From a virus (lineage: Duplodnaviria > Caudoviricetes), in the IMG/VR virus record IMGVR_UViG_3300014205_000170, positions 224,001 to 288,000 of that record: a DNA stretch of 64,000 bases. One strand, given 5' to 3'. A model generated the notes under the pieces. It did not search any database. It was not told the origin of the DNA and saw only the letters and a program-made list of their open reading frames with translations. Below are positions 1,260 through 43,628 of the stretch, piece after piece. Within the stretch, counting starts at the first letter, position 1; every line of letters begins with the position of its first letter. Both the position numbers and the translations under genes were made by a program.

Positions 1260-1263
1260 TTAA

Positions 1264-1294
1264 CAAATATACAAAAAAGTACTTGTTTTTCAAT
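1264..1294 (-). promoter_or_regulatory. Bacteroidota sigma70-type promoter upstream of primase
   Basis: TATATTTG (-7 box TAnnTTTG) at 1271-1264; ATTG 19 nt further upstream approximates the -33 TTTG box. Confidence 0.55.
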
Positions 1295-1316
1295 TAAGAC
1301 TAGAATAAAAACTTAA

Positions 1317-1440
1317 CGCACACCCTCCTATGTCAGGGGTAAATCAAATTACCCCCTCCTAGATAAGGGGGTAAAGCTTTTCTTTTATACTAAGCTACAA
1401 AAGGATTTTCAAGAAGTCAAACTGCCCTAATTAAGGAGTA
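1317..1440 (+). repeat. left terminal inverted repeat (~124 bp)
   Basis: CGCACACCCTCCTATGTCAGGGGTAAATCAAATTACCCCCTCCTAGATAAGGGGGTAAAGCTTTTCTTTTATACTAA, 12-nt variable spacer, then TTTTCAAGAAGTCAAACTGCCCTAATTAAGGAGTA; matches the reverse complement of 2001-2121. Confidence 0.9.
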
Positions 1441-1487
1441 ATTCGTTTTCTGCAAAGAGTTCTAAAAATTTGGGTTCTAATGTTTTT

Positions 1488-1778
1488 TTAAAATGGGTGT
1501 TCTTCTTTTTCTGTAAGAACCTGTGCTTGTGTTTCAAACCAATTACCCATTTCTACAATTTGATTTGTCTCTCCATCTTCAAATATAGCTTCTAATATAG
1601 AAACAAATTGTAAAGTTGTATCAAAATCTTTAATAATCCATTTTGGATTACGCTCTAAGTTACCATATTTTTTTTTGAAGGCTTTATAGTTCAACATATT
1701 TATGTCCCAAGCTAGAGACATATCAGTTAATTCTCCTGAAAATATTACACCTTTTTTATCTTGAATTTGATATCTCAT
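1488..1778 (-). CDS. hypothetical protein with C-terminal VLxEK motif (cassette cargo)
   Basis: 96 aa, ends AQVLTEKEEHPF; ATGA overlap with upstream ORF. Confidence 0.7.
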   Translation of the reverse strand: MRYQIQDKKGVIFSGELTDMSLAWDINMLNYKAFKKKYGNLERNPKWIIKDFDTTLQFVSILEAIFEDGETNQIVEMGNWFETQAQVLTEKEEHPF

Positions 1779-1915
1779 TTATTTTCTTTTGGTGGATTTT
1801 TAGTTTGTTCTGCTGGAGGGTTGTTAATGGGCTTATCTGGTGATTCGCAAGGTCTTCCTGGTTTCATTGGTCCTTCTTTCGCAGGTTCTGTAAAAATTTC
1901 TTTTCCTTTTGACAT
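1775..1915 (-). CDS. 46-aa Pro/Lys/Glu-rich hypothetical peptide (cassette cargo)
   Basis: Hand translation MSKGKEIFTEPAKEGPMKPGRPCESPDKPINNPPAEQTKNPPKENK*; stop overlaps next start (ATGA). Confidence 0.55.
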   Translation of the reverse strand: MSKGKEIFTEPAKEGPMKPGRPCESPDKPINNPPAEQTKNPPKENK

Positions 1916-2000
1916 TAATAGTTATTTTAATAATAAAATTAAAATTTTAGAATATAAAGTAAAGTACAATCTTAATTTTAACAGAAAAATACATTGTTCA

Positions 2001-2121
2001 TACCTCTTAATTAAGGTAGTTTGCTTTCTTGGAAACTACTGTATATTTTAGTATAAAAGAAAAGCTTTACCCCTTATCTAGGAGGAGTAATTTGATTTAC
2101 CCATGACATAGGAGGTGTGCG
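2001..2121 (-). repeat. right terminal inverted repeat (~121 bp)
   Basis: Reverse complement reads CGCACACCTCCTATGTCATGGGTAAATCAAATTACTCCTCCTAGATAAGGGGTAAAGCTTTTCTTTTATACTAA, 12-nt spacer, TTTCCAAGAAAGCAAACTACCTTAATTAAGAGGTA. Confidence 0.9.
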
Positions 2122-2125
2122 AAAC

Positions 2126-2401
2126 TTAAACAAAGTTTGCTACTCCATTAGTTATTATATAATGAGACTTACATTCGAATCTATGTGCCAATGATGGTGC
2201 GATTGTTACTTTGCCATCATTTTGAATTAGCGACCATTCTCCTTGCATTATAGGAATATAAACTTTTTGACCACACCCACACAAACAAAGGTGTCCGGAG
2301 CCATGATATTGTTCAGAATAATATATTATATTAGGCTCATAAACTTCTGGCATTGTTTCAACAAGCACTAAATCAACACTTACTTTTTTTAGTGTTTTCA
2401 T
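2126..2401 (-). CDS. DUF6527-like Cys/His protein
   Basis: HLCLCGCG...W...PS...CKSHYII pattern. Confidence 0.7.
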   Translation of the reverse strand: MKTLKKVSVDLVLVETMPEVYEPNIIYYSEQYHGSGHLCLCGCGQKVYIPIMQGEWSLIQNDGKVTIAPSLAHRFECKSHYIITNGVANFV

Positions 2402-3014: not shown

Positions 3015-3293
3015 GTGAGTGCAATTTTCATAGATAACAATCAACAGTTGGGTAATACAATTTTAGTTACCGGTTTTATACGACATGAATATATTTCTTT
3101 AAAAGGATATATAAGCAGTATAGTAAACATGTCTAGTCTTCGTACGTTAAACTCCCATTTAGAAATCAATTTTATTGCAAAAAATAAACGTTATAAATGT
3201 GCGCGAGGGTTTAATTCTCTTCTTTTAATAACTAGAACAGTATTAATTGAAAAACAACATAAACACTATACAACAAAGAAAGTGGAACGGTGA
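3015..3293 (+). CDS. small array protein (GxT...KG...VLxEK family)
   Basis: LGNTI, LKGYI, TRTVLIEK; close paralogue of next ORF. Confidence 0.75.
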   Translation: MSAIFIDNNQQLGNTILVTGFIRHEYISLKGYISSIVNMSSLRTLNSHLEINFIAKNKRYKCARGFNSLLLITRTVLIEKQHKHYTTKKVER

Positions 3294-3547
3294 GCCATAA
3301 TACATCGCAAATAGAAAATAATCACGAGTTAGGTAGTACCATATTAGTAGATGGTATTCTTAATCATCAGACTATTTTATTAAAAGGATGTATAATACAT
3401 GTTATGACTAGAGTTGCTGCTGTTTCTTATAATGAAATTTTTTTTGTGACAAAAAATAAAAATTATAAAATTTCACGCGAATTAGATTATTCCTTTAGAA
3501 TAACCAGAACAGTATTGTTAGAAAAAAATATAATAAGAAATGTATGA
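3290..3547 (+). CDS. small array protein (VLxEK family)
   Basis: LGSTI, LKGCI, TRTVLLEK; 4-nt overlap. Confidence 0.75.
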   Translation: MSHNTSQIENNHELGSTILVDGILNHQTILLKGCIIHVMTRVAAVSYNEIFFVTKNKNYKISRELDYSFRITRTVLLEKNIIRNV

Positions 3548-3785
3548 TATAGGTACTACATTTATAACCCAAGAGAAGAACGGTCCTTTAATAAAAGGAC
3601 ATATAGATAAAATTCAACTTATGCCACACAATTTACATGGTAAATGTGGTTATACTGCAATTTTTTGTATGCTAGGTAAGGATAAATTTACTACATTAAT
3701 ACATAAACATGGGAAAAAACGACCATTTCAATATGCTAAAATAGTATTACTAGAAAAATTATCTTTGAAATACAAAGTAACATAA
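3540..3785 (+). CDS. small array protein (VLxEK family)
   Basis: IGTTF, IKGHI, AKIVLLEK. Confidence 0.75.
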   Translation: MYDIGTTFITQEKNGPLIKGHIDKIQLMPHNLHGKCGYTAIFCMLGKDKFTTLIHKHGKKRPFQYAKIVLLEKLSLKYKVT

Positions 3786-3798
3786 ACAAACTTTTAAG

Positions 3799-4032
3799 AT
3801 GTTCCAGTTCATTATAAACATATTTGAACGTTTAGATAAAGAAAGAGATGAAAAACTTTATCAACAACGCCTTAAAGAATACTACCACGATGTAGCAATG
3901 TATCACAATAAATGTACAAGAAAAACTTTGATAGAGAAGAACAATAATGAAAGCAATAATAGAATTTTACCAATTATCCATCCTAGTGCATTTAAAGTAG
4001 CTGTTGGCACTCATAATAGAAGAAATAAATAA
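3799..4032 (+). CDS. small hypothetical protein carrying TRKTLIEK
   Basis: Lacks the GDT/KG core of its neighbours but has the EK motif; 3' end uncertain. Confidence 0.55.
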   Translation: MFQFIINIFERLDKERDEKLYQQRLKEYYHDVAMYHNKCTRKTLIEKNNNESNNRILPIIHPSAFKVAVGTHNRRNK

Positions 4033-4036
4033 CAAA

Positions 4037-4327
4037 ATGACTTTAGGTGATACAGTAGAAATATATTTTATAATACATAGCACAAACCATTTTATAAATT
4101 CTATTAAAGGATATGTTGTTGAAAAAAAAGGTACTGTTGCAAATCAAAATATTAATATAATATGTAACAATCAATTGTTTGGTATTTTATCATATGATAC
4201 TCAATTTTATGTTTATCAATGGCATAAAAACAAAGCTTTTCCAATACTTATTTATTACTATAATACTCCTAAGTTAAATTATAAATATAGTAGTGTGGTT
4301 TTAATAGAAAAAAAATATCGTGTATAA
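4037..4327 (+). CDS. small array protein (VLxEK family)
   Basis: Start moved to MTLGDTVEI; IKGYV; SSVVLIEK. Confidence 0.75.
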   Translation: MTLGDTVEIYFIIHSTNHFINSIKGYVVEKKGTVANQNINIICNNQLFGILSYDTQFYVYQWHKNKAFPILIYYYNTPKLNYKYSSVVLIEKKYRV

Positions 4328-4652
4328 TTTTCAAATCGGAGATACAGTAGAGATTTTTTTAACTAAAAACAACATGCCTGAATTTTTAAAACATCAGCAG
4401 GGATGTGTTGCGTATATTTTTCAAGATAACGAAGAATCGTTAGATTTACGTTTAGTGAAAAATAATAAAATTTCTTATAAAGTTATAAGAGTTTATATGG
4501 ATACAACTTCCAAGAAAAGAGCAACATGTTTTGAAACATTTTCTGATAATTATGATGTAATTATTTGGAATTGTGAAAATGGTGATTTTTTCACTGTTCA
4601 TGTACAAGGAAAAAGAATACCGTTAATCGAAAAAAGCTTATTATGGTATTAG
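4320..4652 (+). CDS. small array protein (VLxEK family)
   Basis: FQIGDTVEI; QGCV; KRIPLIEK. Confidence 0.75.
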   Translation: MYNFQIGDTVEIFLTKNNMPEFLKHQQGCVAYIFQDNEESLDLRLVKNNKISYKVIRVYMDTTSKKRATCFETFSDNYDVIIWNCENGDFFTVHVQGKRIPLIEKSLLWY

Positions 4653-4939
4653 GAAATACAGTTAAAATATCTTTTTTTAACGCAGAGAAAAATTATAAAA
4701 AATCTTTTAAAGGATACATTTTTAAATTACCTAGACATAATAAAGAAAAAGTATGTGATGTTTATTTAGCTTTAAATAACATTAAAAGAATAAGACTATT
4801 TAAATGGCCTTTTGAAAAAGAAGTTTATGTTTTTACGGCTAACGAGGCATATGCCAAAAGAATAGATAAGTTTGATGCTAGTTCTTTTAAAATAAAAGAA
4901 ACAAAAATAGTATTATTAGAAAAATTACGTTATGTATAA
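4643..4939 (+). CDS. small array protein (VLxEK family)
   Basis: LGNTVKI; FKGYI; TKIVLLEK. Confidence 0.75.
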   Translation: MVLGNTVKISFFNAEKNYKKSFKGYIFKLPRHNKEKVCDVYLALNNIKRIRLFKWPFEKEVYVFTANEAYAKRIDKFDASSFKIKETKIVLLEKLRYV

Positions 4940-5258
4940 TTTTATAGAAGGAGACACAATACAAATTAGATTAATTAACAGAAGAAAGAAACGTCAGTCT
5001 ATTTCATTTGGTTCAAAAGGATATGTTGTTATAAATAACAACAATGAAGAATGTGACTATACAATAGCAAAAAATTCTAGTAGTCTACATAGATATGTAT
5101 ATTTTAAAGAAAAAAAAATATTTGTTGTATATAAAAGTTGTTGGGATAGAAAACTAAAAAAAGCGACGGTTACGCAAGAAAACTCAGATATATTTAAAAA
5201 TTTCTTTATAAAAATCTCATTAGCAAAAACTGTTTTAACAGAAAAAACATGGCTTTAA
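4932..5258 (+). CDS. small array protein (VLxEK family)
   Basis: EGDTIQI; SKGYV; AKTVLTEK. Confidence 0.75.
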   Translation: MYNFIEGDTIQIRLINRRKKRQSISFGSKGYVVINNNNEECDYTIAKNSSSLHRYVYFKEKKIFVVYKSCWDRKLKKATVTQENSDIFKNFFIKISLAKTVLTEKTWL

Positions 5259-5596
5259 ATTGTCAATTAGGCGATACAATTGAAATTTATTTTTTCGATG
5301 AAACTTCAACATTATTGTTAGGTTGTGACAAAACTTACATTGTAAAATGTTCGAACAAATATAGTCCAATAAAAATTTATAATTTTATAAATAAAAAAAA
5401 TTCTTTTATAGTAAGAAACGGATTTACTATTGAGCCCCTTTATCTTTCTGGATATAGCATCAACAAAGCTGATTCGACCCAGTTATTAGGGCTTTTAAAA
5501 TGTACTAATCATACAAAATGTAAATTACATTTCAAAAACATTAGAATGGTTCTTACAGAAAAAGAAGAATCTTTTTTTAAGCCTTTTTATGATTGA
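5249..5596 (+). CDS. small array protein (VLxEK family)
   Basis: LGDTIEI; KTYIV; IRMVLTEK. Confidence 0.75.
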   Translation: MALNCQLGDTIEIYFFDETSTLLLGCDKTYIVKCSNKYSPIKIYNFINKKNSFIVRNGFTIEPLYLSGYSINKADSTQLLGLLKCTNHTKCKLHFKNIRMVLTEKEESFFKPFYD

Positions 5597-5612: not shown

Positions 5613-6776
5613 TTACATCTCTAAATCAATCGTAAAATTGAATAGATTTGTATAAGTCTTTTGGTAAGGCTCTGATAATTTTGCCATAGCAATTAATTCT
5701 CCTAAAGTATTATATAAACCAACAGTACTAATATATACTGGGTCATAAGAAATAATAGTTGAATTCTCATCTTGGGCAGCAATTGCTGCTTCTCTATTCC
5801 AAGTAGAGTTGTTTGAAATGTAAAATTCTTTTGGCAATGCTAAACATACCGCAGTTTGTTTGAAACTCGTATTGATGTCTTCAAATATAAGTTCCGCAGC
5901 CGGCTCAGATGTTATCGTAACACCTGTAAAATAAATTCCTGTTTTACCTGACACTTGACTATCATCAACATAAGGAACAGCATTTTGTGTAAGTCCTGAA
6001 CTCCAAGGAATATTTGAAGTAATAGCACTATGAGTAATAACAGCATATCCTTTATCTAAAACAACAAATCCACAAGGAATATCATAATTATATCCTGGTC
6101 TGTTATTTGGATAAAAGTTTCCAACGTTATTTGAAAAATTAATATTGGTTCTTAAATCGCTTGCTACATTATATGTATCAAGATATCTTTTTACTTCTTG
6201 ATATTGTACTGCAGAAGGTCTCTTTAAAAAATTAGTTGGGTCTGGATTCCAAGTTGTATTGGCTGAGTGCGATATTAACACACCGATTTCATTAATGGTA
6301 TGACCTGTATATGGTTTATTAATAGAATCAGAAAATAAGAAAACAACATTATCTCCAAGTAATGGATTAGTTTCAGACTTTACAATTTTATCACTCGTAT
6401 AAGTACTAGAATATAATGTTATTGCTGATAAAGTTGGAAATGTAGTTCCATTTTGAGGTACATTCATTTCAATGGTACGACCATCAATAAATTCAGAGTA
6501 TTCAGATGCTGGAATTGGAACTATAACGATTCTGTCTACGTTCAATTGTTGCAATTCAGGGTACAATAATGATAAAGTTGAACCTGTTGTTAAATCAGAT
6601 TCTGCTGTTGGCAAATTGAAAGAAACAAAATAGTTTCCTTTCTTATCTGATAGCAAATCTCTATCACATAACGTAAAACCTAAGCTACCGCCAAAGACAT
6701 CTTTAACGTCACTTTCTTCTGTTTGAACGCTTAATACTGAACTTACAGCTTTCGTATATTTTGGGTCTACTACCAT
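5613..6776 (-). CDS. virion structural protein (baseplate/fibre attachment type)
   Basis: C-terminal YISTVGLYN..GELIAMAKLSEP motif as in myophage tail-collar/baseplate proteins. Confidence 0.65.
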   Translation of the reverse strand: MVVDPKYTKAVSSVLSVQTEESDVKDVFGGSLGFTLCDRDLLSDKKGNYFVSFNLPTAESDLTTGSTLSLLYPELQQLNVDRIVIVPIPASEYSEFIDGRTIEMNVPQNGTTFPTLSAITLYSSTYTSDKIVKSETNPLLGDNVVFLFSDSINKPYTGHTINEIGVLISHSANTTWNPDPTNFLKRPSAVQYQEVKRYLDTYNVASDLRTNINFSNNVGNFYPNNRPGYNYDIPCGFVVLDKGYAVITHSAITSNIPWSSGLTQNAVPYVDDSQVSGKTGIYFTGVTITSEPAAELIFEDINTSFKQTAVCLALPKEFYISNNSTWNREAAIAAQDENSTIISYDPVYISTVGLYNTLGELIAMAKLSEPYQKTYTNLFNFTIDLEM

Positions 6777-42674: not shown

Positions 42675-43628
42675 TTAAGCGACAACCCTAGGTTCAAATT
42701 TGATTTCTCTGTCATGTCTGCTGATAAAATATTCTTTTTTAGCAGATTCATTCCAGAATTTTATTTCTTCCTGACTCATTCCACCTTTATCTTCCGGAAA
42801 AGCTGTTAGGTTTCTTGGTACTTTTGAAGAAAAAGGGTCAACCATTTCTGTTGGAATATCAATTCTGTGTTCATATCCTAAGCGAGGAATTGTAAAGAAT
42901 TTCACATCATCATAAATCATTCTTAAAAAGAATTCATATGCATAAGATACTTTAAAATTCTCTTTCATCGCTTTGTATTGACCGTCAATCAAAGTAGAAT
43001 AATTTTTTATAGAATCAGTTTTAAAAACTGCACCCGTTGTATTGATACAATTAAAACGCATTAATAATTGTAAATCAAATACACCAGCAACTTCTGCATA
43101 ACCATCTACCCAACAAGCTTCATTGAAAAATCCTAAGAAATTACCATTAGAAACTTCTCTTAATAAAGGTAAAAATCCATCTTTATCAATATGTTTTGCA
43201 GCAAATTTCATTGATGTTTTATACCAATCCACATCAATAACATCTTCTGATTCTACAACAGAGAAAAATTTATACTTATTAACAATAGAATAATTTAATG
43301 CCTCATTAAATAATTGTTGAAAAGTATGACTAGATGTATTTTCTAATACATAATTTAGTTTTTTCTCAGATTTAATTTCTTTAGTTTCTGTTGTACCGTC
43401 TTCTTTCTTTTCAGTCACTGTTATAGATGGGCTATCTAATATCGATTTGATTTGCGACAATTCTGTTGCATTATCTCCTCCGTACAATACCAATACATCA
43501 ACTGGTTGATTTTGTTGAGAAAGTGAGTAAGCACATTCTTTTACAAAAACATCTACAAATTTTTTGATTGGTAAAACAACAAGAATATTCTTATCGTTTA
43601 AGCTGGTTAAGTTCTGTAATTCTTTCAT
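42675..43628 (-). CDS. GT-A fold (GT2-like) glycosyltransferase
   Basis: ILVVLPI, VESEDV (DxD-like), TGAVFK, YEFFLRM, IPRLGYEH. Confidence 0.7.
   Translation of the reverse strand: MKELQNLTSLNDKNILVVLPIKKFVDVFVKECAYSLSQQNQPVDVLVLYGGDNATELSQIKSILDSPSITVTEKKEDGTTETKEIKSEKKLNYVLENTSSHTFQQLFNEALNYSIVNKYKFFSVVESEDVIDVDWYKTSMKFAAKHIDKDGFLPLLREVSNGNFLGFFNEACWVDGYAEVAGVFDLQLLMRFNCINTTGAVFKTDSIKNYSTLIDGQYKAMKENFKVSYAYEFFLRMIYDDVKFFTIPRLGYEHRIDIPTEMVDPFSSKVPRNLTAFPEDKGGMSQEEIKFWNESAKKEYFISRHDREIKFEPRVVA

Follow-up and report, generated by a model that had tools for sequence, protein, structure and literature searches.

An 805-bp inverted-repeat cassette flanked by an 8-bp direct repeat in a half-megabase phage genome: a probable non-autonomous insertion

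Results

The present analysis concerns a 64,000-nucleotide stretch of DNA (hereafter the window, whose positions are used throughout) from a phage of the Caudoviricetes, i.e. bases 224,001-288,000 of the 518,809-bp IMG/VR record IMGVR_UViG_3300014205_000170, which has direct terminal repeats and a GC content of 30%. Close to its left end, the window carries a cassette of 805 bp (1317-2121) that contains two small genes and is bracketed by long inverted ends and by an 8-bp duplication (Table 1). The genes around it all lie on the minus strand, in the order RuvC-like resolvase, DUF6527, cassette and DnaG-type primase.

Table 1. Features of the cassette and of its surroundings (window positions).
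Feature	Position	Strand	Remarks
RuvC-like resolvase	3024-2404	-	PHROG 159
DUF6527 gene (PF20137)	2126-2401	-	labelled BubE in the collection's Pfam results; begins 2 nt past the RuvC-like stop
Right copy of AAACTTAA	2122-2129		contains the DUF6527 stop codon (2126-2128)
Right terminal inverted repeat	2001-2121	-	more degenerate copy; sub-repeats at 2066-2085 and 2096-2115
Cargo gene 1 (ORF46), putative	1775-1915	-	46 aa; Pro/Lys-rich, low complexity
Cargo gene 2 (ORF96)	1488-1778	-	96 aa; conserved alpha/beta domain of ~65 aa and disordered tail with a VLxEK tag
Left terminal inverted repeat	1317-1440	+	begins CGCACACC; outer 79 nt well conserved, inner 45 nt looser
Two direct sub-repeats CCTCCTA-N5/6-GGGGTAAA	1324-1343 and 1355-1375 (feature 1324-1375)	+	in the left arm
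8-bp direct repeat AAACTTAA, left copy	1309-1316		putative target-site duplication; abuts the repeat end at offset 0
Spacer between cassette and primase	1260-1308	-	49 nt; ends in promoter-like TATATTTG (1264-1271)
DnaG-type primase	1259-201	-	PHROG 47

An initial annotation, made from the sequence alone, had described the two ends as imperfect inverted repeats, and this is borne out both by global alignment and by BLAST comparison of the genome with itself. In the global alignment, the outer parts of the arms are identical in 72 of 79 columns (three 1-nt indels and two substitutions) and the inner parts in 34 of 46, i.e. a divergence of 9-26%; the self-comparison recovers the pair over 119 nt at 85% identity (E = 1e-26). 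The arms share an identical stretch of 26 bases, which by our estimate is about what chance gives with seven differences in 79 columns, and nothing is drawn from it. The 8-bp repeat AAACTTAA was likewise found as described, directly outside both ends, in direct orientation and with the DUF6527 stop codon in its right copy. It is flush with both arm ends (offset 0/0) and cannot be lengthened in either direction. An exact 8-mer match at the same spacing occurs at 48 of the 517,901 positions of the genome (9.3e-5), and the octamer is not over-represented in the window (10 occurrences observed, 14 expected). A chance origin of the repeats was rejected on the E value of the self-comparison and on this frequency. 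A second independent assembly of the source sample, probably a landfill metagenome, is identical across the region at a depth of ~146. Since the two independent assemblies agree and the arms differ from each other, an assembly artefact is unlikely.

The 519-kb genome contains the motif CCTCCTA-N5/6-GGGGTAAA at four places, two in each arm and none elsewhere, as expected for multiple binding sites; judging from this arrangement, the paired sub-repeats are likely candidate transposase-binding sites. In the left arm, the runs GGGGTAA, TTACCCC and GGGGGTAA allow two mutually exclusive pairings, either GGGGTAA/TTACCCC or TTACCCCCT/AGGGGGTAA. The latter gives the stronger hairpin (1349-1374), which has a 9-10 bp stem, is terminator-like and has a T-rich tail on both strands. 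A terminator-like hairpin faces inward in both arms; the one of the left arm also reads outward and that of the right arm lies at 2067-2090 on the minus strand, with the stem TTACTCCT/AGGGGTAA. In the right arm, one C and one G were lost together and one pair turned into G.U, which preserves the stem; this paired loss hints, if weakly, at a role of the hairpin. The inward hairpins would likely act as insulators of the cargo. Each arm combines its terminator-like hairpin with a sigma-70-like box, and neither contains the GTGTAAC-class promoter motif of the phage itself. Both the cargo (28%) and the genome are poorer in GC than the outer arms (44% on the left and 37% on the right). The minus-strand RNA, taken at full length, is predicted to fold with paired arms (z = -11), and a search of positions 1100-2500 against Rfam returned no family.

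The two open reading frames (ORFs) inside had been noted as coupled, one of them carrying the VLxEK tag, and this also held: both lie on the same strand, they overlap by ATGA, and the 96-aa product ends in ...QVLTEKEEHPF, which places VLTEK nine residues from the end. No homologue and no family was found for ORF46, which may or may not be a true coding sequence. ORF96 had no match in a word-indexed search; an exhaustive HMMER search retrieved 14 remote homologues (proteins P0185-P0198; 63-112 aa, 32-52% identity), all of which align to residues 1-65 only and none of which is tagged. An alignment-based structure prediction gave a pLDDT (predicted local distance difference test) above 90 for residues 1-60 and a good model over residues 1-64 followed by a disordered tail, compared with a poor model from the single sequence. 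The predicted core consists, in order, of two hairpin strands, two helices and one strand; it had no match in PDB or BFVD, and the members of the family had none in Pfam. ORF96 defines an unannotated family of small proteins whose core spans ~65 aa; the tagged tail is present only in the copy of this phage. Searches of both cargo proteins against Pfam, PHROGs and Atlas found nothing, and neither protein has a nuclease or DNA-binding signature. The tag, searched as V-[LIVMF]-x-E-K within the last 25 residues, occurs in 69 of the 802 ORFs of a crude gene set of the genome compared to 2.4 in shuffled sequences, and is therefore carried by at least 69 ORFs genome-wide. Since its homologues are untagged, the cargo gene appears to be adapted to the present phage lineage and not to be a recent import. 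The only homologue of ORF96 with readable DNA (L031) is not flanked by inverted repeats.

Relatives of the primase are numerous (72-77% identity), and seven distinct loci with ~74% nucleotide identity to the window and 73-77% amino acid identity in the primase were compared at the same junction (L004:4940-5040, L008:4940-5040, L022:1440-1560, L023:3240-4020 and L027:3720-4020 among the spans examined). In L004, L005-L007, L008, L022 and L024-L026, a spacer of 17-65 nt separates the end of the RuvC-like gene from the primase. One unrelated 63-aa gene lies between the two in L027 and two genes (95 and 134 aa) in L023; these inserts are not flanked by inverted repeats. Positions 1272-2418 of the window have no nucleotide or translated similarity in any of the seven loci. 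From this comparison, the 1.15 kb that hold DUF6527 and the cassette are a lineage-specific gain. Because the junction is empty in five relatives and holds unrelated small genes in L027 and L023, the spacer between the RuvC-like gene and the primase is a hot spot of gene gain in this phage clade. DUF6527 would have been gained first, the cassette then landing on its last codons. A search of GenBank phages with the 5-kb neighbourhood gave no match, and related loci sought in viral contigs through the primase and ORF96 were not found.

The TATATTTG box is conserved right before the primase in all compared relatives. In the window it lies 4 nt 5′ of the listed GTG start of the primase and, given this position, the transcript probably starts at or near the box. 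A promoter-like TTGAAA-16-TATATT is found at 1293-1266, in the same spacer. For the primase itself, the probable start is an ATG lying 36 nt downstream of this GTG, which yields the 340-aa product given in the collection. Phage contigs other than this one, as well as genomes of Flavobacterium and Mucilaginibacter, contain homologues of DUF6527 (60-81% identity); since their surroundings differ widely, DUF6527 behaves as a moron. Upstream of the RuvC-like gene, the window carries a plus-strand array of small tagged paralogues (3015-5596), in the place where relatives have GIY-YIG/NUMOD homing-endonuclease genes (L004:3612-4379, L005:3576-4334, L023:1672-2681, split, L024:2548-3321 and L027:1930-3162). 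Shortly after the primase, a huge relative (L005:6697-10501, from a 503-kb phage, GCA_902731165.1, and L006) carries Cas2, Cas1, an ISL3-type transposase and a TnpB/Cas12f-like gene. The transposase has a length of 271-279 aa, may be truncated and lies ~2 kb beyond the primase in L005. It follows that the clade hosts insertion sequences of a family that generates 8-bp duplications; neither locus has any similarity to the cassette arms.

Comparison of the whole genome with itself revealed only two inverted pairs of at least 30 nt lying within 6 kb of each other, the cassette arms included. The other pair lies outside the window (G000:C1:37589-37640 and 42781-42832, i.e. L030:590-641 and 5782-5833). 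Here, a promoter plus leader (AAGTGTAACACC...TATAGTACC...ATG) is present in two copies of 52 nt, which face inward and drive convergent gene blocks 5.2 kb apart; a target duplication is absent. In the assembled contigs of one run, neither excision nor inversion was seen, the single spanning contig having one orientation; contigs hide rare variants.

Discussion

Mobile insertion cassettes (MICs) are defined by inverted repeats and a target duplication with no transposase nearby, as in MIC231 of Bacillus cereus and the qnrD and qnrS2 mic elements (PMC3913671). Three of the features of MICs are present at the locus: terminal inverted repeats, a target duplication flush with them, and no transposase inside or nearby. 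On this anatomy, we consider it probable, though far from assured, that 1317-2121 is a non-autonomous insertion cassette mobilized in trans, i.e. a MIC or a cargo-bearing miniature inverted-repeat transposable element (MITE), now a singleton and probably old. The element is regarded as probably old or stranded because it is the only copy found and because no mobilizing enzyme was found, and it is possibly immobile today; its arms have diverged and its cargo bears the C-terminal tag of the phage itself.

The insertion could be pictured as follows. Acting in trans, a transposase of the host or of a co-resident element, rather than of the phage, would have bound the two CCTCCTA-N5/6-GGGGTAAA sites in each end of ~120 nt. 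Next, a staggered cut of 8 bp would have opened AAACTTAA, at the 3′ terminus of a DUF6527 gene that had been gained earlier in the intergenic hot spot between the RuvC-like gene and the primase. The element would have been joined to the cut ends, and gap repair would have generated the 8-bp duplication; the scars of these steps are seen, as is the absence from relatives, and the chemistry is inferred. Insertion-sequence ends often insulate against outside transcription. In the cassette, the inward hairpin and T-run at each end would probably insulate the two-gene cargo in the same way.

Several results weigh against this reading. No other copy of the arms exists in the 519-kb genome. Exact-motif scans with four patterns found nothing in the viral contigs of IMG/VR, and those of JGI metagenome contigs gave seven matches, six to an unrelated 34-nt tandem repeat and one by chance. 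Three patterns scanned over one genome per species (185,579 species) gave 1, 2 and 15 matches, none of which extends beyond the seed; as these scans of public collections rely on exact motifs, diverged copies could escape them. A cognate insertion sequence with the same ends was not found in viral, metagenome, genome, phage or plasmid collections (by exact motif in the public ones), and neither copies at other sites nor an empty-site allele was found; these two features of MICs are absent. Profiles of 11 transposase and recombinase families (IS1595, ISL3, IS66, IS256/Mutator, DDE_Tnp_1, rve, serine recombinase, tyrosine recombinase, TnpB, MULE and Y1) had zero matches in the 519-kb genome, with positive controls in reference genomes. 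No empty site with a single AAACTTAA was found among the compared relatives. Furthermore, we know of no insertion-sequence family generating 8-bp duplications that has a CGCAC terminus or 120-nt ends.

With regard to the scans, the 34-nt tandem repeat (AAACCTCCTACAGAGCGGGTAAAGTGGGCTCATC-like) is found in six JGI metagenome contigs (L015, L016 and L018-L021) and represents an unrelated chance match of the motif. BLASTN searches of the arms against GenBank phages and PLSDB plasmids gave no significant match either. The exact empty site that the initial annotation proposed to look for is not findable in these relatives because none of them has DUF6527 at the junction. The nearest DUF6527 homologue (81% amino acid identity, L009) lies elsewhere and its similarity ends at the stop codon, which makes it uninformative on this point. 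Overall, the proposal of a non-autonomous cassette is upheld by the insertion anatomy, by the lack of an internal transposase and by the absence of the region from seven relatives, but not by any partner or second copy: neither copies with different cargo nor an autonomous element turned up in any collection searched. The observation that would have told against it, namely an arrangement shared by related phages together with no other inverted pair having a target duplication, was found only in its second half, since the relatives do not share the arrangement.

The cassette was also compared with known systems. The 8-bp duplication and the terminal inverted repeats recall IS1595, IS66, ISL3, IS256 and the IS4/IS6 groups, but the transposases of these families are absent from the phage genome, as judged by the profile searches and controls mentioned above. 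In these families, the repeats are roughly 15-40 bp long and have other terminal sequences than those of the cassette. MICs resemble the cassette as well: their repeats bracket passenger genes without any transposase, they have a target duplication and a size of the order of a kilobase, and they are presumed to be mobilized in trans. However, MICs have a known parent (IS231A for MIC231), short repeats (e.g. 24 bp) and a plasmid or chromosomal location, whereas the cassette is parentless, has 120-nt sub-repeated arms and resides as a single copy in a lytic-type megaphage. Prokaryotic MITEs reach ~800 bp, have terminal inverted repeats, generate duplications of 2-10 bp and are rare in phages (PMC11602168). 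The cassette, at the upper end of this size range, shares with them its terminal repeats, its duplication and its non-autonomous character. The viral MITEs were matched by MITEs of cellular genomes (PMC11602168), whereas no host or viral relative of the cassette was found. Moreover, MITEs are non-coding and multi-copy, while the cassette is unique and contains two ORFs.

Two phage-specific systems should also be considered. The mycobacteriophage mobile elements (MPMEs) have inverted repeats of 11 bp and each carries a single small ORF. MPME1 and MPME2 (PMC3029335) resemble the cassette in being ultra-small, phage-resident, devoid of a recognized transposase and inserted into or beside phage genes. 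They differ from it by their size (439-440 bp), by their short repeats and by the addition of 6 bp of unknown origin instead of a target duplication. Furthermore, their mobility was proven by differing sites in near-identical phages, and nothing comparable exists for the cassette. The promoter/stem-loop cassettes (PeSLs) of T4-type phages are short composite promoter-plus-terminator modules that, like the arms, flank non-essential small genes; they lie in the hyperplastic regions of large myoviruses, where they mediate gene gain and loss (PMC2839356, PMC4122927). Unlike the arms, PeSLs are many-copy direct repeats acting by homologous recombination, with neither a flush duplication nor long inverted arms.

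This last likeness underlies the alternative that survives best, although we judge it unlikely. The cassette could have entered by recombination of a small circle or fragment, in the manner of PeSL mini-circles or of moron exchange in T4-type phages, with a single crossover at an 8-bp microhomology giving rise to the direct repeats and the arms being an inverted pair of promoter/terminator modules. In L023 and L027, the hot spot does hold small unrelated genes that are not flanked by inverted repeats, the terminator-like hairpin and sigma-70-like box of the arms resemble PeSL composites (PMC2839356), and the phage duplicates promoter modules in inverted orientation elsewhere. Against this, the arm motif is found nowhere else in the genome, whereas PeSL modules are many-copy and direct, and the GTGTAAC-class promoter of the phage is missing from the arms. 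In addition, recombination at a microhomology does not predict 8-bp repeats flush with the ends of 120-nt inverted repeats.

It is distinctly unlikely that the repeats are purely regulatory or structural, acting either as paired inward terminators or attenuators or as an RNA stem of ~120 bp, formed in read-through RNA, from which RNase III would free the cargo mRNA, with an 8-bp repeat that would be coincidental. The hairpins in both arms, the compensatory indel that preserves the stem and the folding of the full-length RNA agree with such a role, but a long RNA stem is the trivial outcome of any inverted repeat. This explanation leaves unaccounted for the exact and flush direct repeat, given its low expected frequency, and the 120-nt similarity that reaches past the hairpins; nor does it gain from Rfam, or from the junction of the relatives, where no such structure exists.

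We give still less credit to the idea of an undescribed family of giant-phage transposons to which the cassette would belong as an active member. In this view, a transposase missed by the profiles (encoded by the host or by an unannotated phage gene) would recognize its long, hairpin-bearing ends, and the cassette would pick up and move accessory genes of the phage, the tagged ones included. The initial annotation had suggested that such elements offer a route for spreading tagged genes. This suggestion did not survive: at least 69 tagged ORFs contrast with a single other inverted pair of at least 30 nt, which is a duplicated promoter without target duplication. The tagged cargo gene has untagged homologues elsewhere, repeat-less where examined, which also counts against it.

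An autonomous element, in which one of the two small cargo proteins would be an unrecognized miniature transposase or the recruiter of one, is very improbable. Phages do host mobile elements of very small size with short inverted repeats, namely the MPMEs (PMC3029335), and the small conserved domain of ORF96 is genuine and resembles no known fold, but its homologue in L031 is without flanking inverted repeats, the 96-aa and 46-aa proteins are without nuclease or DNA-binding signature, and the tag of ORF96, which dozens of unrelated proteins of the phage share, identifies it as ordinary cargo. Finally, the cassette is a small expression unit bracketed by inverted repeats and had been proposed as a possible invertible segment. 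That it is a phase-variable switch flipped on its arms by a site-specific recombinase has hardly any likelihood, since the genome has neither serine nor tyrosine recombinase (Resolvase and Phage_integrase domains are absent) and the neighbours are the primase, DUF6527 and the RuvC-like gene, both cargo genes are co-oriented with the operon so that flipping would switch nothing on, the arms are diverged, invertible segments lack target duplications, and no second orientation appears in the assembled contigs, in which rare variants would be hidden.

Conclusions

The stranded, non-autonomous insertion cassette that we favour belongs to a known kind of insertion scar, found here in a host genome that is unusual, and does not amount to evidence for a general mechanism; an active gene-spreading system is probably not the right interpretation. 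Transposable elements are rare in phage genomes, and transposase-less phage cassettes that bear cargo are hardly documented. As found, the cassette is a single well-formed scar, which can seed further searches and marks a hot spot of gene gain between the resolvase and the primase. If proven, its insertion would implicate a transposase and, through it, a host or co-resident element, and would constitute a further route of accessory-gene gain by huge phages, shown in a half-megabase phage.

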